A DNA stretch of 64,000 nt. Source: Escherichia phage vB_EcoM_ESCO47. The notes beneath the pieces are model-generated. The model saw only the letters and a program-made list of their open reading frames with translations. It made no database searches and was not told the DNA's origin. The stretch lies in the sequence record OM386662.1. One strand, 5' to 3'. This document shows, piece after piece, positions 44,181 to 61,882 of the stretch. Positions within the stretch are counted from its first letter, which is position 1; each line of letters starts with the position of its first letter. The translations under genes and the position numbers were made by a program.

Positions 44181-44182
44181 GA

Positions 44183-44505: not shown

Positions 44506-44515
44506 CGTTTCTACA

Positions 44516-44545: not shown

Positions 44546-44573
44546 AGTCCTATCAAAACAAGAGGAGAACACT

Positions 44574-45130: not shown

Positions 45131-45309
45131 TGAATAAAATTGTCAAGTGGTTTAAAAGTTGGAACGATGGTATTGAGCATAAAGACTGGCTTGATGTTCT
45201 TGATGAGAATTTATCTAAAGAGATTCAAGAACACGAAAAGAAGCAAGTTGAAGCCGAAGGTATCCGTCTTGTGAAACTTTATATGGGCGAACCTAGGAGA
45301 ACATTATGA
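45130..45309 (+). CDS. Small ORF (59 aa)
   Basis: TAATG coupling; N-terminus [11 protein letters not shown] resembles MFKWFKELF of upstream ORF. Confidence 0.3.
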
Positions 45310-45455
45310 CGTGTACCAAAGAAGCTGAAGCCAGAGCAAAGGAAGCTTTAGATTTGCTTCTCAAAATCGGTAGTAAAATGATGGAAGAGAACGAAAAATA
45401 CATCCAAGAAAATAAAACTCCGGATGGTCCATTAGTTGGTAAGAGGAAATCATAA
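45306..45455 (+). CDS. Small ORF (49 aa)
   Basis: ATGA coupling on both sides. Confidence 0.3.
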
Positions 45456-45853
45456 TGAAAGCTAATTTATACCACATACATATCGACGGTCAAAAATTCC
45501 CTATTGAAGTATTGATCCCTAGTGAGTGGTCAGCGTATAACACTGAAATGTACCGGCGCATTGAAGAACAGTTTTTAACGAGTATTTCTCCTAAAGGTTA
45601 CGAAGTAGAAATCCGACTGGCCGGTGAATTCCACTATGACCCATCTTCGCCATTTGACGTAAGTGAAATCATCATTAATAAAGGATTCGTTAGTCCTGGC
45701 AATAGTTCGTCTCTTTATGGTTACATAAACGATATCATTATCTGCGGAAATAAATTCAGTATATTCCATGAAGAAGACTTGAGAGAGTTCAAAAAGTTGG
45801 TATGGAACTACTTCGGTGAAACCGGGTTTAATTTTATTAAGGCGCCTAAATGA
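45455..45853 (+). CDS. Hypothetical protein
   Basis: 132-aa ORF. Confidence 0.4.
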   Translation: MKANLYHIHIDGQKFPIEVLIPSEWSAYNTEMYRRIEEQFLTSISPKGYEVEIRLAGEFHYDPSSPFDVSEIIINKGFVSPGNSSSLYGYINDIIICGNKFSIFHEEDLREFKKLVWNYFGETGFNFIKAPK

Positions 45854-46332
45854 TGGCTAAAATACTCGAATTAGAATTTTATATTCGTGATAACCGTGGC
45901 CAAACTCGTCCTTATGATGACACAGTTTGCGTTATCTTAGTACCATCTGACACTAGTAACAGTTCATCTGAAAGCCTCGAAAAGGCTATTAATAGTATGG
46001 CTCTTCCTGAAAACGTTATGCTTAAAATAAAGCATAATAAAAATGTTGAGATGCAACCAGGTAGCCCATTTACAGTAGTAGAAGCATTGCTGATTAAAGG
46101 TTATAGTTATCCTAACAACAGATCAGAAGGCGAGAACTCTAAAGAAATTTTCTTTACAACTCCTGATAAAGACTGTCTCGAAGGACGAAGCTATCTTGTA
46201 GGAAGCACTTCTGACGTACTCGAAATCCAACGTCAGATCTGGACGCATTTTGATATCGGACTTCGCTTTACGTTAACAGAGTCAGCCCTTCTAGAACAAT
46301 CTCTTCGTCGACGCATGTACGGTGGTTTCTAA
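45850..46332 (+). CDS. Hypothetical protein
   Basis: 160-aa ORF. Confidence 0.4.
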   Translation: MMAKILELEFYIRDNRGQTRPYDDTVCVILVPSDTSNSSSESLEKAINSMALPENVMLKIKHNKNVEMQPGSPFTVVEALLIKGYSYPNNRSEGENSKEIFFTTPDKDCLEGRSYLVGSTSDVLEIQRQIWTHFDIGLRFTLTESALLEQSLRRRMYGGF

Positions 46333-46511
46333 TGGATTTAATGAGCATGTTTGATGAGCCTGAAGTTGAGGCTCCTAAAGCACAACGTGGAGAACTCGTT
46401 GACGAACTGGACATTATTATACAGCGTCACGGGTTTAATCTTCCTATAGAAGTCCTGAAAGACCTAGCGTCTTACTACGATGATCCACCTCCTTGGGCCC
46501 CTTGGTCATAA
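46332..46511 (+). CDS. Small acidic ORF (59 aa)
   Basis: TAATG coupling; below ORF-track cutoff. Confidence 0.3.
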   Translation: MDLMSMFDEPEVEAPKAQRGELVDELDIIIQRHGFNLPIEVLKDLASYYDDPPPWAPWS

Positions 46512-46596
46512 CAGTTATCCCTCCTTAACGACGTGGTATCCAACTATCACGTCGCCTCTTAGAGTATACATCACTCACAATTTAGCCGAATTTTTA

Positions 46597-46626
46597 GTGT
46601 ACATCCTTAAAGAACAGTGTTACTAT
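46597..46626 (+). promoter_or_regulatory. T4-type early promoter
   Basis: GTGTAC, 18-nt spacer, TACTAT, TCTCCTATCAA box. Confidence 0.5.
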
Positions 46627-46654
46627 TCTCCTATCAACTTCAGGAGAAATCAAA

Positions 46655-47266
46655 ATGTTTTTACCTTATAATGAATGTGAAATTGAAGAAATGGTTCGCC
46701 GAGCACAAGACCCTGTGTTCCAAGAAGACCTGCAATACAAAATTGATGAAGTGTTCAGTGATTCTGAGCAGAGCACTCTTTGGCAGTGCATGGAAAATAA
46801 ACCGGATTGCATTCAACAAGAGTTGGATTCAATCATTCGTAAAAATTGGTCATCTTCTGTGCCAACGGTCCTTTATCGTGGAATTTCTAAGAAAACTCTA
46901 AAAATGTTAGATTCTGTAGGATGTGTAGGAGCTACTATCAAGTTTGACCGAGTAATGAGCTTTAGTTCAGTATTTGGTGTAGCACGTAATTTTGCTTCAC
47001 ACAATTTTTATGGAACTAAACAAATATTCTGTGTTAAGAATGCTCCATTCGCTTTTAACTTCAGAGAAACAATGCTTGACATGATTTTGGCTGCGCCATC
47101 TTGCGAGTTCAGCGGAGCTTTCCCTGAAGCGACTAGACGGTCTAATGTTCGTTTAGTATCTGATGAGTGTGAATTTATGTTCCCGATCGGGACTACACTA
47201 CGTGTAGATTCTGTTACTGAAGAAGGAACTTATCGGATATGGAATCTGTCTATTATCGGTTACTGA
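46655..47266 (+). CDS. ADP-ribosyltransferase, ModA/ModB-like
   Basis: 203 aa; LYRG (Arg motif), FSS, and ECEFMF (ExE) in the order expected for R-S-E ADP-ribosyltransferases; mod position. Confidence 0.55.
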   Translation: MFLPYNECEIEEMVRRAQDPVFQEDLQYKIDEVFSDSEQSTLWQCMENKPDCIQQELDSIIRKNWSSSVPTVLYRGISKKTLKMLDSVGCVGATIKFDRVMSFSSVFGVARNFASHNFYGTKQIFCVKNAPFAFNFRETMLDMILAAPSCEFSGAFPEATRRSNVRLVSDECEFMFPIGTTLRVDSVTEEGTYRIWNLSIIGY

Positions 47267-47339
47267 CCGGATTGGAATAACCGGAAGGAACTCAGAACCA
47301 TTATAATACATAAATTTTTAAAGCATTTTACGAAAAAGA

Positions 47340-47368
47340 GTGTACAATACCTGAGAACATGATACTAC
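47340..47368 (+). promoter_or_regulatory. T4-type early promoter
   Basis: GTGTAC, 17-nt spacer, TACTAC, AGACTTATCAG box. Confidence 0.4.
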
Positions 47369-47417
47369 AGACTTATCAGCTAAATGCCCCAACGTCCGTA
47401 AGACGGAAGAAAATATT

Positions 47418-48170
47418 ATGAAATTATCAAACATCCAAATCAAGAAAATCGAACGTCGTTTAGATCACACCAGAGCTTCTGCAAAGAGGCGCTCTAAGGA
47501 TTTTAACTTAGACTTTAATTACCTTAAAAACATTCTTGATCAAAAGGTCTGCGCTTACTCAGGTGAAACCTTTGATAACAAGGTTGAAGGTGAGAAATTA
47601 TCCTTAGAACGTTTTAATAACGATATCGGTTACATTAAAGGTAACGTTATTCCTGTCAAGAAAAAATATAACGCAGCACGTTCAGATTTTACTTTAGCCG
47701 AACTCATCGAGAAACGTGAAATAATCGCTGGACGTATCGCTACTCCTAGCGCAAAGAAAGTTGAAAAGCTTAATCTCGATGAAAAGAAATGGGCTGAAAT
47801 CAAACACACTTATACACAAATTAAAAATATCCAAAACAAACGTAAGAGCCGTATCGATCATATTGAAAAAATGACTAAAGGTAAAAGCACCTTATCTAAA
47901 GAAGACCAATTAAAAGTTGTCGGATTAAAAGCCCGCATCGATGGTTCCAGAGTTGCCGAAGGACGTGAAGTAACAAAGTTAAATGTTCTTCTTAAAGGTT
48001 CTGATTGGAAAACTAAAACCAAGTTATCCGACGCAGAAACGCTTTTTGATACATATGATAAAGTTATCCAAGGATTACAACGTTTCGAAAAGATTGGTTT
48101 CATCGGTAAATTAAAATTGAAACGTGGTTTACCACTTAACACTTCTATCTTTAAATTGATTAAAGGTTGA
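47418..48170 (+). CDS. Basic 250-aa protein in the T4 srd position
   Basis: Positional only; Lys/Arg-rich. Confidence 0.35.
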   Translation: MKLSNIQIKKIERRLDHTRASAKRRSKDFNLDFNYLKNILDQKVCAYSGETFDNKVEGEKLSLERFNNDIGYIKGNVIPVKKKYNAARSDFTLAELIEKREIIAGRIATPSAKKVEKLNLDEKKWAEIKHTYTQIKNIQNKRKSRIDHIEKMTKGKSTLSKEDQLKVVGLKARIDGSRVAEGREVTKLNVLLKGSDWKTKTKLSDAETLFDTYDKVIQGLQRFEKIGFIGKLKLKRGLPLNTSIFKLIKG

Positions 48171-48171
48171 T

Positions 48172-48483
48172 ATGATGTATTATGCTTATTCAATAGCTTA
48201 TCGGGATTTCGAAGGATTCGTCCAACCGGTTCAGCTAGACTCTGAAAAACCGGCAATATTTTTTAAAAAGGAAGTTGCTGACAAAGTTTTCGATTATATT
48301 AAAAAGGAATACAAACAGGCTTTACGCATGGGAAGAATGAAAATGGTGGTTACACCTCGTAAGTTTTGGTTTGATAAAGTCGAAATGAAACATATAAAAT
48401 TAGATGAGGAGACTGAAAAATTATACCGACGAATTCTTGAAACAGGACGAGTCATTCGTGTACAGGTGGCAGGATTATTATGA
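48172..48483 (+). CDS. Hypothetical protein (dda.1 position)
   Basis: 103-aa ORF, ATGA coupling to dda. Confidence 0.4.
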   Translation: MMYYAYSIAYRDFEGFVQPVQLDSEKPAIFFKKEVADKVFDYIKKEYKQALRMGRMKMVVTPRKFWFDKVEMKHIKLDEETEKLYRRILETGRVIRVQVAGLL

Positions 48484-49793
48484 AATTTGATGATTTGACG
48501 GACGGCCAGAAAAACGCCTTTAATGTTGTTATGAAGGCAATCAAAGAAAAGAAACACCATGTAACTATTAATGGTCCGGCTGGTACAGGTAAAACAACAC
48601 TCACACGGTTTATTGTTGAAGCTCTTATTTCAGCAGGTGAATCAGGTGTTATCTTAGCAGCCCCGACTCACGCCGCCAAAAAGGTTCTAAGTAAATTGGC
48701 CGGACAAGAAGCATCTACTATCCATAGTATTCTTAAAATCAACCCAACAACATACGAAGAAAACGTGTTATTTGAACAGAAACAGGCTCCTGATCTGGCA
48801 CTATGTCGAGTATTAGTGTTTGATGAAGCATCGATGTGTGATCGAAAACTTTTCCAGATTATGTTGGCAAGTATTCCAAAATGGTGTACAGTAATTGGCG
48901 TAGGTGACAGATGTCAGATTCGTCCTGTTGACCCAGGTGAAACAACAGCATATTTGAGCCCATTCTTTACGCATAAAGATTTTGTCCAATGTGACCTTAC
49001 AGAAGTCAAACGTAGTAATGCACCAATTATTGATGTTGCTACCGATATTCGTAATGGTAAATGGATTTATGATAAAATTGTTGACGGACATGGCGTTCAT
49101 GGCTACACTGATTTAAAATCATATATGATGAACTATTTTAATATCGTCAAAACGCCGGAAGACCTTTTCGAAAATCGAATGATGGCCTTCACAAATAAAT
49201 CTGTGGATAAATTAAATTCTGTTATTCGACGTAAGCTTTATCAAACAGAAGCTCCATTTATTAAAGATGAAGTTATTGTCCTTCAAGAACCTGTCACCAA
49301 GTCGTATAAACTCGATGGCAAAAATATGACTGAAATGCTTTTCAATAATGGCCAATTCGTTCGTATTAGAGACGCAGTTGAAACGTCCACATTTGTTAAA
49401 GCAAAGGGTGTTCCAGGCGAATATATGATACGATACTGGAATCTTAGTATTGAAACCTACGGTGATGATGAAGAATATAACAGAGAAGATATAAAGGTTA
49501 TTTCTTCGGATGAAGAGCTTTACAAATTTAATCTATTTTTAGCAAAAACAGCTGAAACGTATAAGTTCTGGAATAAAGGCGGTAAAGCTCCTTGGAATGA
49601 TTTCTGGGATGCTAAGCGAATGTTCACAAAGGTTAAAGCCCTTCCGGTATCAACCTTCCATAAAGCACAAGGTATGTCTGTTGATACGGCCTTTGTTTAT
49701 ACACCGTGTATCCATTACGCTGATTCTGAATTAGCAAAACAACTTCTGTACGTCGGTGCCACTCGTGGACGATTTGACGTCCATTATATTTGA
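48480..49793 (+). CDS. dda: DNA helicase Dda (SF1)
   Basis: 437 aa; MKFDDLTDGQKNAFNVVMKAIKEKKHHVTINGPAGTGKTT matches my recollection of T4 Dda. Confidence 0.9.
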   Translation: MKFDDLTDGQKNAFNVVMKAIKEKKHHVTINGPAGTGKTTLTRFIVEALISAGESGVILAAPTHAAKKVLSKLAGQEASTIHSILKINPTTYEENVLFEQKQAPDLALCRVLVFDEASMCDRKLFQIMLASIPKWCTVIGVGDRCQIRPVDPGETTAYLSPFFTHKDFVQCDLTEVKRSNAPIIDVATDIRNGKWIYDKIVDGHGVHGYTDLKSYMMNYFNIVKTPEDLFENRMMAFTNKSVDKLNSVIRRKLYQTEAPFIKDEVIVLQEPVTKSYKLDGKNMTEMLFNNGQFVRIRDAVETSTFVKAKGVPGEYMIRYWNLSIETYGDDEEYNREDIKVISSDEELYKFNLFLAKTAETYKFWNKGGKAPWNDFWDAKRMFTKVKALPVSTFHKAQGMSVDTAFVYTPCIHYADSELAKQLLYVGATRGRFDVHYI

Positions 49794-49804
49794 TTGAGGA
49801 AATT

Positions 49805-50482
49805 ATGAATAATGATGTTATTATAGACTTTGAAACATTCGGTAATACGTCTAAAGCTGCGGTTATTGACCTTGCAGTTATTGCGTATAATTCCAACCCT
49901 GAAGTCGTAGAGACGTTTGAAGAACTCGTTCAACGTGGTAAACGAATTAAATTTAATCTTGCTTCACAGAAAGGAAAACGTGTTTTTGCTAAGACTACTA
50001 TGAAATGGTGGAAAGAGCAGTCAGATGAAGCTCGCAAAAACTTGGCACCAACTGAAGACGATGTTACCACTTTAGAGGGTATTAAAATCTTTTTGGACTA
50101 TTGCCGAGATAATAAAGTGGACCAATGGAAATCACAGATGTGGTGTCGTGGTATGAGCTTTGACTTTCCGATTCTGGTTGATTTAATTCGAGATCTTTAT
50201 CGTGACGAAGGTGTCCCAGAAGCAGAAATCGATACTGATAAACTTGAACCGGTTAAATTCTGGGCTCAACGTGACATCCGTACTGCAATTGAAGCTTACT
50301 CGTTGACGCGTGGATTAAGTATGTGTCCATTGCCAATGGGTACATTAAAAGGATTCGTTGCCCACGACAGTATTCATGATTGTGCTAAAGATATTTTGAT
50401 GTTAAAATATGCTCAACGTTATGCACTTGGACTTGAAGATGTGCCCGAGAATCCAGACCCATTAAGTGTAAAACAACGATAA
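49805..50482 (+). CDS. dexA: Exonuclease A (DEDD 3'-5' exonuclease)
   Basis: VIIDFETFGN exo I motif, HDSIHDCAKD exo III-like; position after dda. Confidence 0.7.
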   Translation: MNNDVIIDFETFGNTSKAAVIDLAVIAYNSNPEVVETFEELVQRGKRIKFNLASQKGKRVFAKTTMKWWKEQSDEARKNLAPTEDDVTTLEGIKIFLDYCRDNKVDQWKSQMWCRGMSFDFPILVDLIRDLYRDEGVPEAEIDTDKLEPVKFWAQRDIRTAIEAYSLTRGLSMCPLPMGTLKGFVAHDSIHDCAKDILMLKYAQRYALGLEDVPENPDPLSVKQR

Positions 50483-50486
50483 AACA

Positions 50487-50515
50487 GTTTACATCCTCTG
50501 TAGATATGTTATAAT
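50487..50515 (+). promoter_or_regulatory. T4-type early promoter
   Basis: GTTTAC, 17-nt spacer, TATAAT, TCTATCAACTACAGAGG box. Confidence 0.55.
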
Positions 50516-50556
50516 TCGTTCTATCAACTACAGAGGTAAGTAATACGATTACTGAT

Positions 50557-51048
50557 ATGGATCTAGCAAGTATGTACGGCACTCTTATTAAACCATTAAA
50601 AATTAAGGAACCAAAAATGGCTATCAAAATCGGCAAAACCTACAAACTGGTTGAACCTGAAATTAAAACTCCTGTACTGGTCGCTTCATATCATACTTTA
50701 AGCCTCCTTTTAGGTGATGAAGATTTCGAAATCGTATCTTTTAAAAGACATGTTTGGTTTGAAGGTTATGAAATAACGACTCGTCATCGTTCTTCAGGCC
50801 GAGTGGAAAATATTACTGTTTATACACACGAACTCGAGTTGTTTGAAGAATTGGTTCAAAAAGTTGTTGAAGACCCCACCGATCTTCTGTGTAAAGCAGT
50901 AAGCATTCGTCGTCCATTTGATAATCGTCGGATTTGTGGATGGGTAACTGATCAGTGGATTGAAGATGGTGTTGAGCTCTTGAACGTGGTCCATGATGGT
51001 GATTTTACTGTATGTCCACGTAGTGCAGTGGTTAATGTATTGAATTAA
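50557..51048 (+). CDS. Hypothetical protein in motB position (start may be ATG 50617)
   Basis: 163-aa ORF; positional. Confidence 0.4.
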   Translation: MDLASMYGTLIKPLKIKEPKMAIKIGKTYKLVEPEIKTPVLVASYHTLSLLLGDEDFEIVSFKRHVWFEGYEITTRHRSSGRVENITVYTHELELFEELVQKVVEDPTDLLCKAVSIRRPFDNRRICGWVTDQWIEDGVELLNVVHDGDFTVCPRSAVVNVLN

Positions 51049-51051
51049 TAG

Positions 51052-51080
51052 TTTTACTTCTCCTCTAGACATGATACTAT
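51052..51080 (+). promoter_or_regulatory. T4-type early promoter
   Basis: TTTTAC, 17-nt spacer, TACTAT, AACTTATCAACTAGAGGAG box. Confidence 0.45.
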
Positions 51081-51106
51081 AAACTTATCAACTAGAGGAG
51101 AATAAT

Positions 51107-51634
51107 ATGTTAGTTTATCGAGTAGAACGTAGTTTTTGTACCCAAAGAGAATATTTGCCTTCAGTCGGATACGAAAACGGTGAAATGGTTCGTACCTGGG
51201 AGATATCCTGGAATAAAGAACCACGCTCACCTTACGGATGGTCTGGCACCGACAACTCTGAAGAAACCTGGGAATTCCTTGATAAACACGGGATATTGTC
51301 AGGCAACTTCTATCATAACGACGGCAATATAAACGCCCCTAATCGTCCTACAATCAAAAATGATCACCTCTTATCAAAAAATATTTTAAAACAAAATAAC
51401 CTTGATTTCATAGACCAAATAGCTGATTGGTTAGAGACAGGTGAATTTTACTTTGCGTTTGATACGGTCGACACGGTGTACCGATGGTTTGATAACTCCG
51501 ATGACATAGAACTCTTGAAGGCTAAAGGTTACTACATCGCGGTCTATGATGCTCCTGACGTCATTTTAGGCGACTCTCAACTTTTGTTCAAACGTTCTTC
51601 GGCAGAACAAGTTGATTTTATTTTAATAAAATGA
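51107..51634 (+). CDS. Hypothetical protein
   Basis: 175-aa ORF. Confidence 0.45.
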   Translation: MLVYRVERSFCTQREYLPSVGYENGEMVRTWEISWNKEPRSPYGWSGTDNSEETWEFLDKHGILSGNFYHNDGNINAPNRPTIKNDHLLSKNILKQNNLDFIDQIADWLETGEFYFAFDTVDTVYRWFDNSDDIELLKAKGYYIAVYDAPDVILGDSQLLFKRSSAEQVDFILIK

Positions 51635-51663
51635 TGTACAAACTGATAGTATTTTGTTACTAT
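51635..51663 (+). promoter_or_regulatory. T4-type early promoter
   Basis: TGTACA, 17-nt spacer, TACTAT, AGACCTATCAA box, GAGGAG RBS. Confidence 0.5.
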
Positions 51664-51691
51664 AGACCTATCAAAACAAGAGGAGAACATT

Positions 51692-51886
51692 ATGAAAACT
51701 TTATTAACTCAAGATCAATTTGAAGATATCCTTTTCGACCCAGAATTAGTTGTTGTTCAAAAAGAAATTACTAGTGGTCTTGAACACCATTCTTACGTAT
51801 ACGTTTATGAAAATGACAAACCAGTTATGGTTGCAGTACGTCACATCACAGGCGAAGGCACAACTTACTGGAAGGAAGCAATCTAA
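51692..51886 (+). CDS. Hypothetical protein
   Basis: 64-aa ORF. Confidence 0.4.
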
Positions 51887-52308
51887 TGGCTATTAAATTT
51901 GAAGTTAACAAATGGTACCAATTTAAAGATAAACGTGCCCAAGAAGAGTTTATTAAAGACCACACTGATAATGGGATTTATGCACGACGTCTTGGCATGG
52001 AACCATTTAAAGTATTAGATGTTGACCATCTTGGTCGTCCTACTAAAATTGTGACATCTACTGGCATGGTTGGATACGCAACAGGCGGTGATATCCTTGA
52101 TGAAAACTTTATCTGGCTCTCCACGAATGAAGCAGAGTTCTTTGTCGAAGTTGGAAATCCATACCAGGCAGCTGAAGAACAAGAACATGAAGAGCAAGAA
52201 CCAATGCCAGAATTGACTGAGTTCCCTTTACTGAAAGTTACTATTGAAAATAATGAACAAGCATGGTCTTTGTATCAAATGTTGAAAGCTCACTTTAAGG
52301 AACAATAA
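51886..52308 (+). CDS. Hypothetical acidic protein
   Basis: 140-aa ORF, TAATG coupling. Confidence 0.45.
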
Positions 52309-52487
52309 TGCCGTTATACGACTATAAATGCCAATCTGAAGATTGTGGTCATGAATATGAAAAAATTAAAAGAATTTCTGAACGAGAAAACGATGTTTGC
52401 CCTGAATGTCATCGTCTGTCTACTCGTCGGGTTTCTGCTCCTAAACATGTGAACGGTGGTTTTTACGACTTACTTAAGAAGGATTGA
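52308..52487 (+). CDS. FmdB-like zinc-ribbon small protein (59 aa)
   Basis: [18 protein letters not shown]...CPECH; below ORF-track cutoff. Confidence 0.4.
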   Translation: MPLYDYKCQSEDCGHEYEKIKRISERENDVCPECHRLSTRRVSAPKHVNGGFYDLLKKD

Positions 52488-52489
52488 TT

Positions 52490-52915
52490 ATGGCTTTTAA
52501 AGGTTTTGAAGTTGGTAAGAAATATCGTATTATCAAAGGACAGGAAGATAATTTCTTGAGAATTCTTAATACGACTGGTAAACGTCTTAATACTAATCTG
52601 CATACTACTTTATTGTCCAAAGATTTTATTGTGGAAGAGATGATTGGTTATGGTGTTTCGATTATTGCTGTAGAAGCTGTAGGCGATTACGGCCGAACTA
52701 TTCATAGTATGCAAGGTGATATTCTGCTTTATGGTGCAGAATTTAAATTCTTTGAAGAAGTTCCGGAACCAGATACAGCTGTCGATTTCAAAAAAGGCTC
52801 TATAGAATTTGTTGATGGTTCGGTGATCGTATCAGGCGATGTGGTCATTACAGTTAAAAGTGAACAAGGGCGTTTGGCTGCAATTGATGCACTTCAGAAA
52901 ATTAAATTTAAATAA
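52490..52915 (+). CDS. Hypothetical protein
   Basis: ORF-track start 52484 is TTG; ATG 52490 more plausible. Confidence 0.45.
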   Translation: MAFKGFEVGKKYRIIKGQEDNFLRILNTTGKRLNTNLHTTLLSKDFIVEEMIGYGVSIIAVEAVGDYGRTIHSMQGDILLYGAEFKFFEEVPEPDTAVDFKKGSIEFVDGSVIVSGDVVITVKSEQGRLAAIDALQKIKFK

Positions 52916-52932
52916 GGGCTTCGGCCCTTTTT
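52915..52932 (+). terminator. Rho-independent terminator with TTCG tetraloop
   Basis: AGGGC-TTCG-GCCCT then TTTTT. Confidence 0.55.
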
Positions 52933-52956
52933 GCTTTAGATTTCGGATGATAGAAT
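52932..52956 (+). promoter_or_regulatory. MotA-box middle promoter upstream of gene 39
   Basis: TGCTTTA then 19 nt to TAGAAT; GGATGATAGAAT shared with the gene 47 promoter. Confidence 0.45.
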
Positions 52957-52978
52957 ACCTTCATAACGAGGAGACAAC

Positions 52979-54796
52979 ATGATTAAAAATGAAATTAAAG
53001 TATTATCAGACGTAGAACATATTAAGAAACGTAGTGGTATGTATATTGGTTCTTCGGCTAAAGAAGCACATGAGCGTTTTTTGTTTGGTAAATATCAACA
53101 AGTTGAATATGTTCCTGGTCTGGTTAAATTAATCGATGAGATTATTGACAACTCGGTTGATGAAGCTATTCGTACATCATTTAAGTTCGCAAATAAAATT
53201 GATGTGCAAATTAAAAATAATCAAGTTTCGGTGGAAGATAACGGACGTGGTATTCCTCAAGGTTTAGTTACCGACCAAACAGGTGAACAAATTCCTGGGC
53301 CTGTAGCAGCCTGGACTATTCCAAAGGCCGGCGGTAACTTTGGCGATGACTCTGAACGCAAGACCGGTGGTATGAACGGCGTCGGGAGTAGTTTAACTAA
53401 TATCTTCTCTACGTTGTTTACAGGCATCACGTCAGATGGCGAAAATGAAATCACTGTTAATTGTTCAAACGGAATGGAAAACAAATCATGGTCTTCTAAG
53501 AAATCTAAAGGTAAAGGAACTAAAGTAATCTTCACTCCTGATTTCTCTTCATTTGAAGAGCATAATTTATCTCAAATTTATTTAGATATTACTTTAGACC
53601 GACTTCAAACATTGGCAGTCGTTTATCCTGATATCAAGTTCACATTTAATGGTAAAAAGGTTGATGGTAATTTTAAACGATTTGCTAAACAATTTGGCGA
53701 AGATAACATCATTCAAGAAAACGATAAAGTGTCAATCGCATTCACAACATCGCCTGACGGTTTTCGACATTTGACGTATGTGAACAACATTCATACTAAA
53801 AATGGTGGACATCATGTTGAATGTGTAATGGATGATATCTGCGAACATCTTTTGCCCGGTATTAAAAAGAAATATAAGGGTATTGAGGTAACTAAAGCTC
53901 GTGTTAAAGAATGTCTCACGATGCTGATGTTTATTCGTGATATGAGCAACATGCGTTTTGATTCTCAGACTAAAGAACGTTTAACGTCAACGTATGGTGA
54001 TATTCGTAATCATATCCAATTAGATGCTAAGAAAATTGCTCAGTCACTTCTTAAAAATGAAGCTCTGATTATGCCTATTGTTGAAGCAGCATTAGCTCGT
54101 AAATTAGCAGCAGAAAAGGCCGCCGAAACTAAAGCAGCTAAAAAGGCCACTAAAGCAAAAGTTCATAAGCATATTAAAGCTAATCAATGTGGTAAAGATG
54201 CAGATACGACATTGTTCTTAACAGAAGGTGATTCGGCAATTGGTTATCTCATTGATGTTCGTGACCGTGAACTACACGGCGGATTCCCATTACGTGGTAA
54301 GGTGATGAATAGCTGGGGTATGTCATATGCTGATATGATGAAGAACAAAGAGCTCTTTGATATCTGTGCTATCACAGGTCTTATTCTCGGTGAAAAGGCA
54401 GAGAACACGAACTATCGTAATATCGCAATTATGACCGATGCCGATCATGACGGTCTTGGAAGTATCTATCCGGCTTTGCTTGCTTTCTTTAGTAATTGGC
54501 CTGAATTGTTTGAACAAGGACGTATTCGCTTTGTTAAAACTCCGGTAATTATTGCACAAATTGGCAAAACACAAAAATGGTTTTATACTGTAGCTGAGTA
54601 TGAAGAAGCTAAAGAATCATTACCAAAACACGGTATTCGATATATTAAAGGACTTGGTTCACTTGAAAAATCCGAATACCGTGAAATGATTCAGAATCCA
54701 GTTTATGACGTAGTTAAATTGCCTGAAAACTGGAAAGAGTTGTTTGAAATGTTGATGGGTAATGACCCGGATCTTCGTAAAGAATGGATGTCCTAA
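52979..54796 (+). CDS. 39: Topoisomerase II large subunit gp39 (GyrB-like), single uninterrupted ORF covering the gene 60 region
   Basis: 605 aa; GHKL ATPase motifs (ELIDNSVDE, GRGIP) and TOPRIM-like C-terminus in one frame. Confidence 0.9.
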   Translation: MIKNEIKVLSDVEHIKKRSGMYIGSSAKEAHERFLFGKYQQVEYVPGLVKLIDEIIDNSVDEAIRTSFKFANKIDVQIKNNQVSVEDNGRGIPQGLVTDQTGEQIPGPVAAWTIPKAGGNFGDDSERKTGGMNGVGSSLTNIFSTLFTGITSDGENEITVNCSNGMENKSWSSKKSKGKGTKVIFTPDFSSFEEHNLSQIYLDITLDRLQTLAVVYPDIKFTFNGKKVDGNFKRFAKQFGEDNIIQENDKVSIAFTTSPDGFRHLTYVNNIHTKNGGHHVECVMDDICEHLLPGIKKKYKGIEVTKARVKECLTMLMFIRDMSNMRFDSQTKERLTSTYGDIRNHIQLDAKKIAQSLLKNEALIMPIVEAALARKLAAEKAAETKAAKKATKAKVHKHIKANQCGKDADTTLFLTEGDSAIGYLIDVRDRELHGGFPLRGKVMNSWGMSYADMMKNKELFDICAITGLILGEKAENTNYRNIAIMTDADHDGLGSIYPALLAFFSNWPELFEQGRIRFVKTPVIIAQIGKTQKWFYTVAEYEEAKESLPKHGIRYIKGLGSLEKSEYREMIQNPVYDVVKLPENWKELFEMLMGNDPDLRKEWMS

Positions 54797-54818
54797 GCTC
54801 CTTCGGGAGCTTTATTTT
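54796..54818 (+). terminator. Putative terminator with TTCG tetraloop
   Basis: AGCTCC-TTCG-GGAGCT then TTATTTT. Confidence 0.5.
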
Positions 54819-54838
54819 AATTTTAATAAGGCTTAATT

Positions 54839-55939
54839 ATGAAAGTTATGTTTATCCCATCTCGTGCAGTCCCATTTAATCCTGACCGTGTACAAGGTGG
54901 TCTTGAAGCGGTACATTTAAATGTGTTGAAATATTTAGTTTCTATCGGTGCCGATATTGATTATATCGGTTTTGATAACGACACATTTGGTGATTGGAAA
55001 GTTACACACCATCCTGTTGGCCATCTTACTAAATTCAGTCTAGGTATGAGTTATACTATGGCTCGTAAGATTGTTGAACTGGCCGGCATCCATGAATACG
55101 ATTTTGTTGTTACTATGGAACCGACTAAACTAACCGTTCAGGCAATTAAAGACGCAGGTCTCTCTAAAGTTCATAAGAATTTTATGGCAACACCATTTGA
55201 ACCTGTATCTCGTGGCATTGTTCAAATTTGGGACCAGACTATTCAAATTCATAAGAACGGTGGTAAGAGTTATGCTCCTACTAAAGCCTTCCGTGAATTT
55301 GAACGCAAATATTGTCATATGACTTCAGGTCTGACAGACAAAATTGATTATGATTATTGGCGAGCAAATCCGTTGTTTGAAGCCGAAGATTATCCGGTTA
55401 TTTGTTTGAATGAGAAACCTGAAGTTCTTCCAGCAACTGATCTGATTATTAGTGCACAACGTTATGACACTAAAATGCGTCGTACTGATGTTGCTCTTGA
55501 AGCGATTAAAGCGCTCGGCGAAAATGGTGCAGGATACTGTCCTAGTAAATGGGCACCACCGGCTAAGTATCCAGTAACTATTGATGCTCCACATAGTGAA
55601 ATCATGGAACGCCTTAAAACAGCTAAAGCACTTATCAATACGTGTCCTGACACCGGCACGGTAGAGAATAGTTCTATTGAAGCTATTTCTAAAGGTGTAC
55701 CTGTGATTCAGCTAGTCTTTAAAGATTATCCACATGCTACGTTTGAATATGACCCTGACACGGTACGTGTAGAGATTGATGCTTCCACCCCTAAGAAAGA
55801 AGTAGTTATGCTTTACACAAAAGCTGTATTAGAATTCACTGACACATACGAATCACGAGTCAAACGTGCAGAATATGTATGGCAAAAGTATAATCGGGAT
55901 GCAGTTGTAGCGATGTGGGATAAAATCTTCACAGCGTAA
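54839..55939 (+). CDS. GT-B (GT4-like) glycosyltransferase, candidate DNA hmC glycosyl/arabinosyl-transferase
   Basis: N-terminal MKVMFIPSR...GGLEAVHLNVLKYL and C-terminal ENSSIEAISKGVPVI resemble GT4 motifs; lies between 39 and rIIA. Confidence 0.55.
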   Translation: MKVMFIPSRAVPFNPDRVQGGLEAVHLNVLKYLVSIGADIDYIGFDNDTFGDWKVTHHPVGHLTKFSLGMSYTMARKIVELAGIHEYDFVVTMEPTKLTVQAIKDAGLSKVHKNFMATPFEPVSRGIVQIWDQTIQIHKNGGKSYAPTKAFREFERKYCHMTSGLTDKIDYDYWRANPLFEAEDYPVICLNEKPEVLPATDLIISAQRYDTKMRRTDVALEAIKALGENGAGYCPSKWAPPAKYPVTIDAPHSEIMERLKTAKALINTCPDTGTVENSSIEAISKGVPVIQLVFKDYPHATFEYDPDTVRVEIDASTPKKEVVMLYTKAVLEFTDTYESRVKRAEYVWQKYNRDAVVAMWDKIFTA

Positions 55940-56031
55940 ATCCTGAATAGCCTGAGGCACTATTACACATAAGATGATAAATTATATGGTCTTTGGTAAT
56001 AGTGTCATAGGAATCTACTGAAGAGAATATT

Positions 56032-56232
56032 ATGAGAACATATAACGTGGACTTGGAACTTTTTGATAAAGCGGTGCTCCGGGAATTCCGGCTTATCCAA
56101 AGATTTTTTGATATCGAGTCAGCAGAGTCCTTTAAAGAACGCTTTAAAGAAATTCGATATAAAATACAAACCGATACAGCTACTAAAGAAGAACTTCTTG
56201 AAGTAGCAGAAATTTTTAAACGTAACTTGTGA
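56032..56232 (+). CDS. Hypothetical protein (rIIA.1 position)
   Basis: 66-aa ORF. Confidence 0.4.
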   Translation: MRTYNVDLELFDKAVLREFRLIQRFFDIESAESFKERFKEIRYKIQTDTATKEELLEVAEIFKRNL

Positions 56233-56244
56233 CGAGAGAAAAAT

Positions 56245-58458
56245 ATGATTATTGAAACGGCTAAAGAAACGATTATTGGTTCAGGCGGTAAGAGCACAGC
56301 ATTCACTATTCAAGCAAACAGTAAAGTGTATAAGATTCTTTCTAACGATCTTTACACAAACAAAGAACGAGCTTGTGTACGTGAATTAATCACAAACTGT
56401 ATTGATGGGCAAATTCTTAATGGCTGCACTGATAAGTTTATTGTTCAGGCACCAGGTCGTTTAGACCCACGTTTTGTAGTTCGAGACTTTGGTCCTGGTA
56501 TGAGTGATTTCACCATTCGAGGTAATGACGAAGAGCCAGGAATTTATAACTCATATTTTGCTTCAACTAAAACATCGAGTAACGATTTCATTGGTGGATT
56601 CGGACTCGGTTCTAAAGCTCCATTAGCATATACTGATACGTTTAACATTACTTCTTATCATAATGGTGAAGTTCGTGGTTATGTAATTTATCAAGATGAC
56701 AGTGGTCCACAGATTAAGCCAACCTTCGTAGATAAGATGGGTCCTGATGACCGGACCGGTGTTGAAGTAGTTGTGCCTGTTAACCCAGAAGATTTTGAAA
56801 AGTTCGCATCCGAAATTGCTTATGTTATGCGTCCTCTCGGCGATATTGCAGAAGTTCGTGGTGTTAAAGATATCAAATACTTCCCTGATTTCGACGACGT
56901 TTATCTGGCCAAGGATGCTCCATGGGGTGAACGTGGTAACATCATGGCTGTTTATGGTGGTATTGTATATCCTATCAGTGACGCTATTAAAGAACAAACA
57001 TGGATGATGACGCGATGCACTACAGCTTATATTAAATTCCCCATGGGTGAACTAGATGTAGCCCCGTCTCGTGAAGCATTGTCATTTGATAAACGTACAG
57101 TAGCAAATATCCATAAACGTGTTGCAGAAATTGATGCAAAATTATTTGCTGAAGATTCTAAGAAATGGATTGATTGTGAATATCCACGTCATGTATTCCG
57201 TGAAATCGATTCTCTTGGTTACTCTGCTCGTAAATACATGGAAAAAGCTGGTTCTAATATTGAATCACTGAAATATTCTAAAGAACAGCTAACTTATTCT
57301 GAGTTGTACAAACGTTTTAAAATGGGTCCTGAATGGTGCAACCTTGGTGTTGTATACGATATCGTTTCAGACCCACGTCTTCGTCGTATTCGTGAAAGCG
57401 GAAGCTCGTCTGCAACTATTTCAATTAATAGCCTGCTAGGTATTAGCCGTAAGCATATTGATATTGTTATTGACGATGTGAAAGGCCGCGTACCAATGAT
57501 GCGTGCTCTGAACGATGCTTTGACTTCCACTGATGCATCAACACTCGTTGATAAGGTTCCTTCCGGATGGGGTAGTAGCGTATTATTCATTAACCCGGAA
57601 GATGAAGTTGCAATGAAACTTCTAGAACGATTAAAGGTTATTTTCGCTGGGGATAGCCTTAAATTTTATAAGACATCTGAAATTCTTGCATTAGTTAAAC
57701 CGTGGATTGAAGTTAAAGAACGTTCATCGCAGCCTCGTCCTAAATCCCCAAGTGCTCATCGGTTCTTTAAGAATGAAAACGATGTTTGGGTATCAGAAGA
57801 TCTCTTTATTCCAGCGAGTGAAGCTGATGAAATCCAAGGTTATGCTATAGTTCGTAATCGTTCTAATGCTGAATGTCTTGACGCAGATAAAGGTTGGTTG
57901 AACTATGACTCCAATTTCTTGACCCGTATTGCTGATTTGTCAGGTATTAAAGAGTTCACTGTAGTCCGTCCACAGATTGCTAAGAAAGTTCGTAAACTTG
58001 GTGAAGTAGAATGCTTGTTCGAAAAATCAATTAATGACTATATTACGCTAATTGATAAAGTGGATTATGATGAGTATGTATCACCAAGTCGTAGAGCACA
58101 GCCTTATTTGAATCATATTACTCGTAATGAAGAGCTTAACTTCCTTAGTAAGTATTTTAGCTCTAAGAACAAAGAAATCAGTAAAGATTTTGCAAAACTT
58201 TCAACAGTAAATAATCGTTGGGGATGGAATCGATTCTCAGGTGTTACTAACAGAGAACTGAATAAGAAGTTGGAATTGTGTGCTAAAATTTTCGATAAGC
58301 TTAAAGATAATGCTTACGATAATGATGATAAAATGGTTATTGAATTCGAAACCAATTATCATATTGTGTCAGACTACATGGGACGACGTGGTACTCTTTC
58401 CAAAGAACAGGTCGCTCAAATCGTTAAATTCATGAAGGCCGTGGAAGCGGCCAAATAA
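56245..58458 (+). CDS. rIIA: rIIA protein
   Basis: 737 aa; N-terminal VRELITNCIDG...DFGPGMSD...GGFGLGSK GHKL-type ATPase fold. Confidence 0.9.
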   Translation: MIIETAKETIIGSGGKSTAFTIQANSKVYKILSNDLYTNKERACVRELITNCIDGQILNGCTDKFIVQAPGRLDPRFVVRDFGPGMSDFTIRGNDEEPGIYNSYFASTKTSSNDFIGGFGLGSKAPLAYTDTFNITSYHNGEVRGYVIYQDDSGPQIKPTFVDKMGPDDRTGVEVVVPVNPEDFEKFASEIAYVMRPLGDIAEVRGVKDIKYFPDFDDVYLAKDAPWGERGNIMAVYGGIVYPISDAIKEQTWMMTRCTTAYIKFPMGELDVAPSREALSFDKRTVANIHKRVAEIDAKLFAEDSKKWIDCEYPRHVFREIDSLGYSARKYMEKAGSNIESLKYSKEQLTYSELYKRFKMGPEWCNLGVVYDIVSDPRLRRIRESGSSSATISINSLLGISRKHIDIVIDDVKGRVPMMRALNDALTSTDASTLVDKVPSGWGSSVLFINPEDEVAMKLLERLKVIFAGDSLKFYKTSEILALVKPWIEVKERSSQPRPKSPSAHRFFKNENDVWVSEDLFIPASEADEIQGYAIVRNRSNAECLDADKGWLNYDSNFLTRIADLSGIKEFTVVRPQIAKKVRKLGEVECLFEKSINDYITLIDKVDYDEYVSPSRRAQPYLNHITRNEELNFLSKYFSSKNKEISKDFAKLSTVNNRWGWNRFSGVTNRELNKKLELCAKIFDKLKDNAYDNDDKMVIEFETNYHIVSDYMGRRGTLSKEQVAQIVKFMKAVEAAK

Positions 58459-58467
58459 GGAAACATT

Positions 58468-59403
58468 ATGTACAATATCAAATGCTTGTCCCAAGAAGAA
58501 CAGTTAGAAGCTTACGGCCTGGTTGAATCAGGCAAATGGACCCGTAAAGAAATTGCCGATTACTTTGACATTTCAACAGATACTCTTCGTAAGATTGTTA
58601 AGAATTTTAAAGCTGAAGAGAAAGCCTCTGAATTTGAAGACGAAGAACAGGTCCCAGAAAATAATGAACCTATTATTACAGGTCATCGTCCAGAAATCGT
58701 ATGGAACGCGTCGTCTAAATTTATTTCAATTATTGAAGGACGCGATTCATATAATGCGACACCAACAAGCCATGCGAATTTTGAAGAAATTAAAGCTAAT
58801 TTGGTCGCAGGAAACTTTGCTAAAGCTATCGAACTTATTAACCTCAAGAAAGCTATTACTAAGTATGTTGATGGTAATATTATTATTGAAGGTGGTCGCC
58901 TATTTTATCAAGGAATAGAAATTCGTTCAGGACTTGTCGATCGTATTATCGACTCTATGGAAAAAGGCGAAGACTTTAAATTTTATCTGCCATTCCTTGA
59001 AAACTTGTTAGAAAACCCAAGTGAAAAAGCAGTTCAACGCTTATTCGACTTCTTGGTTGCAAACGATATTGAAATCACTGAAGACGGTCATTTCTACGCA
59101 TGGAAAGTAGTTCGTAAAGACTATTTAGATTGCTATAGTGGCACATTTGATAACTCGCCTGGTAAAGTTGTTTCAATGCCTCGTACTCGTGTTAACGATG
59201 ATGATACTCAAACTTGTTCCAGTGGTCTACATGTTTGTGCTAAATCATATATTCGTTACTTTGGTTCTAGCTCAGATAAAGTTGTTAAGGTTAAAGTTCA
59301 TCCACGTGATGTTGTATCCATCCCAGTTGACTACGGTGATGCTAAGATGCGTACTTGTCGTTATGAAGTAATTTCAGACGTTACTGAATTATTTGCAGAA
59401 TAA
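58468..59403 (+). CDS. rIIB: rIIB protein
   Basis: 311 aa; MYNIKCL start and FLENLLENPS...DFLVANDIEITEDG region match my recollection of T4 rIIB. Confidence 0.9.
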   Translation: MYNIKCLSQEEQLEAYGLVESGKWTRKEIADYFDISTDTLRKIVKNFKAEEKASEFEDEEQVPENNEPIITGHRPEIVWNASSKFISIIEGRDSYNATPTSHANFEEIKANLVAGNFAKAIELINLKKAITKYVDGNIIIEGGRLFYQGIEIRSGLVDRIIDSMEKGEDFKFYLPFLENLLENPSEKAVQRLFDFLVANDIEITEDGHFYAWKVVRKDYLDCYSGTFDNSPGKVVSMPRTRVNDDDTQTCSSGLHVCAKSYIRYFGSSSDKVVKVKVHPRDVVSIPVDYGDAKMRTCRYEVISDVTELFAE

Positions 59404-59408
59404 TAATT

Positions 59409-59430
59409 GGGGACTTCGGTCCCCTTTTTT
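59409..59430 (+). terminator. Rho-independent terminator with TTCG tetraloop
   Basis: GGGGAC-TTCG-GTCCCC then TTTTTT. Confidence 0.65.
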
Positions 59431-59444
59431 CTTTAGGGGTAATT

Positions 59445-59732
59445 ATGATTCATCCATTTGACGTATCAGAATCCAAAATTGCTAATCTTCGCGGTCATCA
59501 TAAGTGTAAATCAGTTTATTGTGCTAAATTGGTAAAACATCCTGGCGATGCACACTACGGCTGGTTAGAATGTGACGAAGTTGTTATTGAAATCCCTCCT
59601 GTGGATGCAGAATACCTTGAAGAAGGTGATCGCATTTATTTAGGTGAACTACATATTAGAGGTATCTATGGTAAAGACGAACTTGGGACTACTGAGACTG
59701 AAGAGTCTTCCGACATTTATCCTGTCGAATGA
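59445..59732 (+). CDS. Hypothetical protein
   Basis: 95-aa ORF. Confidence 0.4.
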   Translation: MIHPFDVSESKIANLRGHHKCKSVYCAKLVKHPGDAHYGWLECDEVVIEIPPVDAEYLEEGDRIYLGELHIRGIYGKDELGTTETEESSDIYPVE

Positions 59733-59748
59733 GTTTCTGACTAGCGAA

Positions 59749-60225
59749 ATGAAGGTAAAGATCGCGGATACAGCCAAGTATTCTCTTAGTCAAGACCCTG
59801 ATCAAATCAAAGAAGACGTAGTTCGTCGTTGTAAGGTTGCAGTCTTTGCCGAGTATGTAGTCGCTAATTGGTTAGATGGATATGTTAATAAAGGCATTGA
59901 AGATGTTGAAGACCCTTACACGTATGCATGGGATGTTCTAGCTCATCCTAAATACTGTGGATTGCGTGTAGAAGTCAAGACTCATCAGATGGACTCACGT
60001 TGGATTTCAGTCACTACAGGATATAGTGGCGATTATCCGGGTGGTAATGGAATCAATATAGGGCCCTTCTTGAATCATCGAGTCGCAGATTGCATTATTA
60101 TATTAAATGCCAAAGAAACCTCACCTGACGTCTTCTCTTATTCTATAAAGTTCGCGGGAGACCATGAAGACCTAAAGAAAATCGTCCGCAAGAGCAACTA
60201 CAACGGGTGGTATCTTCATCTTTAA
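59749..60225 (+). CDS. Hypothetical protein in the T4 denB position
   Basis: ATG 59749 follows upstream stop; ORF-track 59644 start overlaps previous gene; positional only. Confidence 0.35.
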   Translation: MKVKIADTAKYSLSQDPDQIKEDVVRRCKVAVFAEYVVANWLDGYVNKGIEDVEDPYTYAWDVLAHPKYCGLRVEVKTHQMDSRWISVTTGYSGDYPGGNGINIGPFLNHRVADCIIILNAKETSPDVFSYSIKFAGDHEDLKKIVRKSNYNGWYLHL

Positions 60226-60237
60226 TTTCATAAAAGT

Positions 60238-60268
60238 GTTTACAGCTAAGTAGGACTATGATATAGTA
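60238..60268 (+). promoter_or_regulatory. T4-type early promoter
   Basis: GTTTAC ... TATAGTAGTCCTATC box, GGAGG RBS. Confidence 0.5.
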
Positions 60269-60293
60269 GTCCTATCTAAAGGAGGATAACATC

Positions 60294-60557
60294 ATGAAAT
60301 TTAAATTTTTCTACGCAAAACATAAAGTGACCGGTGAGTTTGTTTCAATGTACAACACCGCAGATGACGAAGGGATGATTTATACCCATTTGGGTCTATC
60401 TCATTGGGATTCAGACGTGCCTTATATGTCATCTGAAGCCGAAATAACTCGTCTGGTTAATGGACATATGAACGACCATTTTGGTGTTATTCTTTCTAAA
60501 GACCTTAAAGAGGTTATCAACAAAGGATATATGGAACTCGCGGAAGTTGAGATATGA
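60294..60557 (+). CDS. Hypothetical protein
   Basis: 87-aa ORF. Confidence 0.4.
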   Translation: MKFKFFYAKHKVTGEFVSMYNTADDEGMIYTHLGLSHWDSDVPYMSSEAEITRLVNGHMNDHFGVILSKDLKEVINKGYMELAEVEI

Positions 60558-60749
60558 GCTCTAAAATGTGGATAGGAATATGGTTGCTTAGTATCCCAAT
60601 GATTTGTATAATATTTTCAATTGCATTGAGGTACTTATGAAAAATGCACTTCTTATTGTACTAAGAACAATTTGTGATACGGGTTTTTACATTGCATGTT
60701 CGTTCACTGGAACATGGTTGGCTTTAACATATTTTAATGTAATTTAATT

Positions 60750-60780
60750 GTTTACATCAAGGTAGGATTATGGTATAGTA
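60750..60780 (+). promoter_or_regulatory. T4-type early promoter
   Basis: GTTTAC ... TATAGTAGTCCTATCAA box. Confidence 0.5.
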
Positions 60781-60807
60781 GTCCTATCAAAATATGAGGA
60801 ACACAAA

Positions 60808-61008
60808 ATGACTAAGCTTTTTAAAGATGTTGAAATTGGTGAAAAATTTGTCCTGAATAATGGTCAGCAGCTTATTCGTGTAGCTTCTATAGCCGGACAA
60901 ACTCATAACTGCATCGCCCCGACGTATTGGACCCGATTCTTTATTGAGGATGACACCGAATGTTTAACTGTTGAAGAGCTTTTTGAACGTTCTGATATAA
61001 CCGAATAA
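60808..61008 (+). CDS. Hypothetical protein
   Basis: 66-aa ORF. Confidence 0.4.
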   Translation: MTKLFKDVEIGEKFVLNNGQQLIRVASIAGQTHNCIAPTYWTRFFIEDDTECLTVEELFERSDITE

Positions 61009-61084
61009 AATTGTACAAACTCCTGAGAGCAGAGTATAATGCTCTCATGGATTACAAAACATCAACTTACTTGAGGAAATTTAT

Positions 61085-61534
61085 ATGAACAATTACATGA
61101 CTCGTCGCGATATCCTGGCAGCTGGTGGTACTACGGTTGCTTACGTTCAGAATGGTAAATACCAGTCAGGTGAACCATCTAAAGCGGTTGCAGCACAACC
61201 TGGATTCTACTTCTTTGTTAAAGGTTTTAGTAACTCTCGTGTAGTAGCTGCCCGGTTTTATGTAGGTAATCAACGTTCTAAACAGGGACTTGATGGTATT
61301 GTAGCTAATATCCGTAAACAACGTTCTCAAGCTGCTCGCACCATGGCCACCAACAACGTAATTTACGAAGTGTTATACGTCCCAGCATCTAAGATGAAAC
61401 CTCTGACAACCGGCATTGGTAAAAGACAGTTAGTGATGGCTTTCACTCGCAATCACAGTTCAGATCTACAGACACTGGAAGAAATGAACCGAATTCTGGC
61501 CGACAACTTTAAATTCATCTTACAGAGTTACTAA
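61085..61534 (+). CDS. ndd: Ndd-position protein (nucleoid disruption in T4)
   Basis: 149 aa, position between rIIB and 52 as in T4; sequence identity not verifiable from memory. Confidence 0.45.
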
Positions 61535-61576
61535 TCCGGTAATAAAACGGCGTCTTAGGACGCCACTGGGGAAATT

Positions 61577-61741
61577 ATGCAACCGATTTTAACTTTTATC
61601 TGGTTAGTGACTGTTATTGTGTTGGTAACCCTTTTTGCAGCAGGTGTATGGGTTCCAGGTCCTTTTGTTGTTGGATTTATTTGTGTGTGGTTCATACTAG
61701 ACGCAATCGTTAAATTTTTAGTAACGGTATTTAACCGATGA
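61577..61741 (+). CDS. Small membrane ORF (54 aa) in the T4 ac position
   Basis: Hydrophobic; + strand alternative to the antisense ORF 61555..61749. Confidence 0.3.
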   Translation: MQPILTFIWLVTVIVLVTLFAAGVWVPGPFVVGFICVWFILDAIVKFLVTVFNR

Positions 61742-61882
61742 TTAAACAAATCTTTGGCTACTCGATAGCCCTTGCTGCTTTATTAGTGGCATTATATTAT
61801 GGTGTTATGTTCGGGCTAATCCAAGTCGTGCTTTTCATTTCTGATGTTATTATGGCACTACATTCACTAGTATGGTAAATTT

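Follow-up and report, generated by a model that had tools for sequence, protein, structure and literature searches.

Does the gene 39 locus of Escherichia phage vB_EcoM_ESCO47 (sequence record OM386662.1) hold a topoisomerase gene that was never interrupted, or does its continuous reading frame have some other origin? The question arises from phage T4, in which the same subunit is divided between genes 39 and 60. The split has been attributed to a mobile MobA element with a bypass cassette aboard, an unsplit 'parental' gene has been found in each clade investigated, and the region of insertion corresponds to about codons 466-492 in the numbering of the protein described here (bioRxiv 10.1101/2022.08.31.505936). 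The window referred to throughout is the whole 64,000-nt stretch of DNA that was analysed. According to an original prediction made from the letters of this window, gene 39 is a single 605-aa ORF at 52979-54796 with no gene 60 split, its GyrB-like ATPase and C-terminal region lie in one frame, and a glycosyltransferase gene comes next. We conclude that this is almost certainly an RB69-like T-even phage (Mosigvirus) with an intact gene 39 that was never interrupted by a MobA element. The features on which the analysis draws are collected in Table 1.

Table 1. Features of the gene 39 locus and its surroundings, in window coordinates
Feature	Position	Strand	Evidence
Terminator-like GC-rich CUUCGG hairpin and T run, at the end of the preceding 143-aa gene	52914..52929	+	Terminator scan
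Putative T4-type middle promoter, 5' of gene 39	52932..52956	+	Read by eye
Gene 39, one-piece GyrB/ParE-like large subunit of a phage type IIA DNA topoisomerase	52979..54796	+	phrog_543, T6/RB69 matches
GHKL ATPase domain, residues 47-189	53117..53545	+	PF02518, E 3.5e-11, above cut-off
Transducer domain, residues 249-385	53723..54133	+	PF00204, E 2.6e-14, above cut-off
Toprim and C-terminal associated domain, residues 411-604	54209..54790	+	PF01751, PF16898, motifs, gp60 identity
Empty site, codons 475-492, ENTNYRNIAIMTDADHDG	54401..54454	+	T4 gp39/gp60 alignment breakpoints; DNA reading
Terminator-like GC-rich CUUCGG hairpin and T run, overlapping the gene 39 stop codon	54795..54812	+	Terminator scan
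GT-B (GT4-like) glycosyltransferase, 366 aa, RB69 ORF003c/gp3 homologue	54839..55939	+	PDB 9IQZ, ORF003c, phrog_8302
rIIA.1, conserved downstream flank of the locus	56032..56232	+	PF24210, E 2.1e-30
Gene 52, GyrA/ParC-like DNA-cleavage subunit, 441 aa, gp39 partner	61883..63208	+	PF00521, E 1.6e-78

The ORF listing agrees exactly with the predicted coordinates and length, with the frame running from ATG to TAA on the plus strand. The probability that an open frame as long as gene 39 would arise by chance, given the base composition of the window, is about 3e-20. A Shine-Dalgarno sequence, GGAG, is found 6-9 nt 5' of the start codon, and the encoded protein begins with MIKNEIK, as do T4 and T6 gp39. 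All 605 residues of the protein match phrog_543, 'DNA topoisomerase II large subunit', in PHROGs (residues 1-605, E 1.5e-286).

Pfam and motif inspection found the GHKL, transducer and Toprim/C-terminal regions in this one frame, as had been predicted of the GyrB-like ATPase and the C-terminal region. The ATPase motifs comprise an N-box (EIIDNSVD, residues 54-61), a G1 box (DNGRG, 87-91) and a G2 box (GGMNGVG, 130-136), and the QTK loop of the transducer is at residues 330-332. Both Toprim motifs are intact: EGDSA, with the catalytic Glu, at residues 416-420 and DADHD, the DxDxD metal-binding motif, at residues 487-491. Scores for the two C-terminal Pfam families fall just under the curated cut-offs (PF01751 Toprim, 17.4 versus 23.1 bits; PF16898 TOPRIM_C, 27 versus 29 bits), which is to be expected in a divergent phage clade. 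We nevertheless assign the Toprim domain because this part of the protein shares 86% identity with T4 gp60 and is collinear with T6. With all ATPase and acidic catalytic motifs present, the product is predicted to be a complete GyrB/ParE-like subunit.

Alignment with the T4 proteins (from NC_000866) located the T4 split on the window sequence. In the window protein, T4 gp39 1-473 corresponds to residues 1-474 (79% identity, a single one-residue gap) and T4 gp60 27-159 to residues 473-605 (86% identity, E 2e-87). Since gp60 27-159 aligns within the 605-aa frame, the gp60-equivalent C-terminal region is present and in frame; a missing gp60 region, the result that would have spoken against an unsplit gene, was not what the alignment returned. 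Two parts of the T4 proteins have nothing equivalent in the window protein: the C-terminal 43 residues of gp39 and the N-terminal 26 of gp60. When mapped on the window, the location of the T4 MobA element, comprising the gp39 extension, mobA, 60.1 and the start of gene 60, falls after codon 474, and the 50-nt coding gap of T4 follows the Gly codon whose last base is 54454.

T4 divides the subunit as genes 39 and 60 with a translational bypass, as the original prediction stated. T4 DNA at this point reads GAT GGA TAG...GGA TTA, in which GAT GGA TAG is followed by 47 nt and then by TTA GGT TCT. The window reads ...GAT CAT GAC GGT CTT GGA AGT... without interruption at the same position, where Gly492 occupies 54452-54454 and Leu493 occupies 54455-54457. 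The T4 arrangement of a GGA take-off codon, in-frame stop, hairpin and GGA landing codon was not found at this site, which has neither a stop nor a gap. Over codons 467-497 the window is collinear with both T6 and RB69 with zero indels. The ORF therefore spans the T4 gp39 and gp60 regions as a single unit free of the bypass cassette, and the unsplit reading stands.

Searches for displaced or residual parts of the T4 insertion gave consistently negative results. Neither mobA nor a remnant of it occurs within the Toprim-coding region, where the ORF is unbroken over codons 466-493; the sole Mob-like ORF of the window is at 22523..23239, 30 kb from gene 39. A tblastn search of the whole window revealed no second gp60-like segment, with gp60-like sequence confined to 54395-54793, and the C-terminal extension of T4 gp39 gave only chance matches in the window by tblastn (E at least 0.6). 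The 50-nt bypass cassette is absent from the window as judged by blastn-short, which returned only short, AT-rich chance matches of at most 16 nt. The longest of these is a 16-mer at 7877-7892, within an unrelated ORF.

The frequency of the two forms was gauged by database searches with the protein and with the insertion site. Homologues of gene 39 were found by tblastn with the 605-aa query in 2199 phage records, and 2006 of these have 80% or more of the protein at a single location. Nearly all homologues are single-piece by the spread of their tblastn matches, and T4 appears as three pieces. When a 301-nt probe was placed across the T4 insertion site, 209 records matched, of which 198 carried it without a break and 160 were 90% or more identical to it. 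Partial matches to the probe, among the matches listed, are from two distant phages, the split T4-like phage HY03 and an Acinetobacter phage. No split gene 39 was seen among close relatives in these 209 matching records, with partial matches as listed. Records with some part of the T4 insert or cassette DNA number 283, all of them T4-like, and full-length MobA is found in just 73 records. Annotations carry the same information, as the gene of RB14 is labelled '60plus39' in GenBank and the RB69 record remarks that the subunit is split by insertion in T4. The one-piece gene 39 is the norm, represented by T2, T6, RB14 and RB69, and the T4 split is the exception and is derived. Hence the unsplit gene was correctly read, yet it is already known, being the default that has long been documented in T4-like phages.

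Other histories that would leave a continuous frame have to be set against this reading. An ancestor may have carried the MobA/bypass element and lost it precisely, in which case the one-piece gene would be a revertant. Lineages that lost the MobA element are known to retain extension peptides (bioRxiv 10.1101/2022.08.31.505936), whereas the window is without a trace of any. The freedom of codons 467-497 from indels relative to T6 and RB69 also counts against such a re-fusion, as does the finding that close relatives all appear uninterrupted when judged with the 301-nt probe, with the partial matches listed coming from distant phages. With no extension-peptide remnants and no junction indels, we rejected reversion after element loss and regard it as very improbable.

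It is also conceivable that the gene came from the host and encodes a B subunit of gyrase or topoisomerase IV instead of a T-even gp39; several GenBank records of related phages use the labels 'parE' or 'DNA gyrase subunit B', and its Pfam domains are common to GyrB and ParE. However, the protein and T6 gp39 are 82% identical from end to end, and the matches of the protein to ParE (E ~1e-47) and GyrB (E ~1e-37) are far weaker; it is without the longer C-terminal region of GyrB (605 versus ~800 aa), and its neighbourhood is the T-even rIIA-39-dexA region. A host parE or gyrB identity is excluded by the T6 identity together with the gene neighbourhood, and we give it next to no credence. A similarly negligible chance attaches to the continuous frame being an assembly artefact or an intact-looking pseudogene. 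The family is not immune to such errors, as the RB69 reference record has likely sequencing errors in gene 39, but the length and sequence of the window gene agree with those of ~150 independent Mosigvirus genomes, its catalytic motifs are all intact, and its differences from relatives are mostly synonymous. An intact, never-interrupted Mosigvirus gene 39 is the reading retained in what follows.

The surroundings of the gene are those of an RB69-like phage. Gene order in the window is dexA ... cef, goF, 39.2, 39.1-like, 39, ORF003c, rIIA.1, rIIA, rIIB ... ndd ... 52, which is the order of RB69 and Bas46. Gene 39 is placed between the 39.1/39.2/goF block and rIIA.1-rIIA, as in T4, T6, RB69 and Bas46. 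The partner protein gp52 matches two chains of T4 gp52, 8yo3_A and 8ylu_A, over its whole length (E ~1e-264), with Tyr116 situated within the motif AASRYIF (SRY motif).

Upstream of gene 39, a MotA-box-like TGCTTTA at 52932-52938 is separated by a 12-nt spacer from TAGAAT at 52951-52956, a combination that resembles the middle-promoter consensus and is a possible T4-type middle promoter. A scan for sigma-70 promoters revealed no enrichment over shuffled sequences (12 found versus 13.1 expected), and we therefore treat the transcription signals as provisional and propose no promoter beyond the MotA-box-like motif. The signals on either side of gene 39 may act as promoter and terminators.

The gene that follows gene 39 was predicted to encode a glycosyltransferase, and this proved accurate. 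The 366-aa protein shares ~97% identity with PDB 9IQZ/9IR0, whose deposited name is 'Glycosyltransferase subfamily 4-like N-terminal domain-containing protein', and 98% with RB69 ORF003c. A Pfam search of the 366-aa protein returned zero families at threshold; the objection that the glycosyltransferase call is unfounded on that account was rejected, given that the protein is nearly identical in sequence to both RB69 ORF003c and a GT4-like protein of solved structure. The counterpart in phage Bas46 is annotated 'putative hmC-arabinosyltransferase', and the remaining genes of the arabinosylation cluster are found in the window at 29476..36026, between gene 43 and uvsX. ORF003c has been proposed as the DNA arabinosyltransferase of RB69, with a GT-B fold (Thomas et al. 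2018, PMC6024577). The modified base of RB69 has since been revised to arabinosylated 5-hydroxycytosine, and RB69 gp3 has been proposed to add a second arabinose as a second (beta) arabinosyltransferase (2026 paper, PMC13326640). We regard the window protein as a putative DNA arabinosyltransferase, as proposed for its RB69 homologue.

Three states are known for the slot that separates gene 39 from rIIA.1: empty in T6, occupied by mobA/60.1/60 in T4, and occupied by the glycosyltransferase gene in RB69-like phages. T-even genomes are plastic at gene boundaries, and the variable slot is consistent with this plasticity.

The conservation of the insertion site raises the further suggestion that a Mosigvirus-type gene 39 resists MobA homing. 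It is made because the site is conserved and yet the close relatives examined, in one database, appear unsplit; we consider it unlikely. A failure of Mosigvirus phages to exchange DNA with T4-type phages is known. Such failed exchange could be the cause of resistance, as could arabinosylated cytosines. If resistance were real, base hypermodification would be a barrier against the spread of a homing endonuclease. Lack of co-infection or divergence of the target sequence would explain the missing split forms equally well, and the insertion site is only ~80% identical to that of T6 in DNA, as counted from the alignment.

The following picture of the enzyme is proposed. The gp39 subunit would begin with a GHKL ATPase gate at its N-terminus, continue with a transducer that carries the QTK loop, and finish with a metal-binding Toprim domain and its C-terminal tail. 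Since the gp52 gene is present in the window, ~7 kb downstream, a two-subunit type IIA topoisomerase is to be expected, in which gp39 and gp52 would assemble into a (gp39)2(gp52)2 enzyme like that of T2 and T6. Such an enzyme would relax and decatenate DNA with ATP during phage replication. This predicted activity and quaternary structure follow the T-even precedents. The topoisomerase II of T2 and T6 is a two-subunit enzyme of solved structure, and biochemical assays of the T6 and T4 enzymes have demonstrated ATP-dependent relaxation and decatenation (PMC11461880). The three-subunit state of T4 is derived: a ~1.1-kb mobile element with the gene for MobA, an HNH homing endonuclease, entered the Toprim domain together with a 50-nt bypass cassette, and the window locus represents the empty site corresponding to the T4 MobA insertion. 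As a clean, uninterrupted 'parental' allele, the locus can serve as a reference for defining the MobA/bypass insertion of T4. That the phage should make a T6-like two-subunit topoisomerase II matters little beyond correct annotation, and it raises no new question.

Comparison with known systems places the window protein firmly among T-even gp39 subunits. Its GHKL/transducer/Toprim architecture and motifs recur in bacterial GyrB/ParE and in the N-terminal half of eukaryotic topoisomerase II, although the relationship is distant; the best scores among these are to eukaryotic Top2 (E ~1e-61), ahead of ParE and then GyrB, and GyrB differs further in its much greater length. T-even topoisomerases relax DNA and are not known to supercoil it. 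T4 differs from the window in its extras, namely ~43 residues that end gp39, a mobA pseudogene, gene 60.1, ~26 residues that start gp60 and the 50-nt gap, none of which the window has.

Orthologues from Mosigvirus phages (such as Bas46, HY126 and phage SF) and RB69 are 95-99% identical in protein and have an identical flanking order that includes ORF003c. RB69 gp39 (RB69p004) is 95% identical to the window protein. The RB69 reference protein deviates over residues 12-48, and the pattern resembles frameshift errors in the RB69 record. Many Mosigvirus orthologues are 98.2-98.8% identical to the gene 39 protein and 94.5% identical in DNA, and most differences are therefore synonymous, which fits purifying selection. 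Gene 39 and the next gene share 94.5% DNA identity with ~150 Mosigvirus genomes, but the surrounding 24 kb is only ~89% identical to the best records; the phage is therefore a distinct isolate or lineage.

The likeness to T6 and T2 extends over the whole subunit. T6 gp39 (YP_010067157) is also 605 aa, encoded by an ORF of 1818 nt including the stop codon, and has the same domain order, motifs and gp52 partner. It is 82% identical to the window protein and collinear with it end to end with one 1-residue gap. Alignment with other T-even gene 39 sequences was the check named in the original prediction. Residues 1-605 give a full-length match to residues 1-604 of the T6 gp39 chain resolved by cryo-EM (8ylu_C), and 8YO1 and others are matched as well. 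The window protein differs from T6 gp39 in having an extra Gly301 and in being without the terminal Gln. At the level of the locus, rIIA.1 directly follows gene 39 in T6, whereas in the window the 366-aa glycosyltransferase gene stands in between.

The phage carries a Mob-family homing endonuclease, but it is located outside gene 39, the unsplit gene for the topoisomerase II large subunit. Its gene sits right at the 3' end of gene 46 (20838..22526), with all its neighbours encoded on the other strand, and the product shows 48% identity to the N-terminal HNH region of MobA from phage RB55. Only 19 phage records contain it, and its DNA identity is 97.8-99.4% among the matches listed, well above the roughly 89% seen for another part of the window. 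This combination of few carriers and elevated identity points to a recently mobile element.

Features in and around gene 39 and elsewhere in the window
Feature	Length	Window position	Strand	Remarks
Mob-type HNH homing endonuclease	238 aa	22523..23239	-	phrog_655, E 2.7e-64
Cluster matching RB69 arabinosyl-5-hydroxycytosine pathway		29476..36026	+	compared with PMC13326640
SIS-domain arabinose-5-phosphate isomerase	210 aa	in cluster	+	
Nucleotidyltransferase fusion	561 aa	in cluster	+	
Phosphatase-like ORF	133 aa	in cluster	+	
U32-peptidase-like protein	386 aa	in cluster	+	
Thymidylate-synthase homologue	238 aa	in cluster	+	
Protein without known family	299 aa	in cluster	+	
Thymidylate-kinase-like protein	182 aa	in cluster	+	
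ORF at 39.1 position, directly 5' of gene 39	143 aa	52484..52915	+	phrog_622, function unknown
GC-rich hairpin, CUUCGG loop, then T run		52914..52929		
Differing gp39 block		53012..53125		RB69 NC_004928 5340..5450
GC-rich hairpin, CUUCGG loop, then T run		54795..54812		

The 16 nt at 7877..7892 on the minus strand (CTCATAATTAAGAGAT) are identical to a stretch from the middle of the coding gap in T4 gene 60. They lie within an unrelated 325-aa ORF (7786..8763), are AT-rich, and give a blastn-short E-value of 6e-4; this is most likely a chance match. No tRNA or tmRNA genes were found by ARAGORN across the whole 64-kb window (1..64000).

In the RB69 reference record, gp39 has 606 aa and departs from the window protein and from its T4 and T6 counterparts in one block alone, residues 12-48 (VEPLLRNRMVCILVLS... 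against VEHIKKRSGMYIGSS...). This pattern looks typical of compensating frameshift errors, and similar sequencing errors have been described in other RB69 genes in a 2026 NAR paper (PMC13326640).

The modified-cytosine cluster, flanked by gene 43 (26723..29434) and uvsX (36127..37299), provides the functional context for the glycosyltransferase adjoining gene 39. Judged by its position, the 299-aa protein is probably the first arabinosyltransferase.

Immediately upstream of gene 39, the final 38 residues of the 143-aa ORF weakly match the goF family phrog_13003 (E 6e-6), and the goF position is held not by this ORF but by one of 140 aa (51886..52308). The content of the 39.1 position varies among T4, T6 and RB69. 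Gene 39 itself is bracketed by two closely alike hairpins, the second of which overlaps its stop codon, and terminator-like sites are enriched in the surrounding 4-kb stretch (8 versus 1.9 expected). The T4 bypass hairpin has a CUUCGG loop as well, a feature that it probably shares with the hairpins flanking gene 39 by coincidence.
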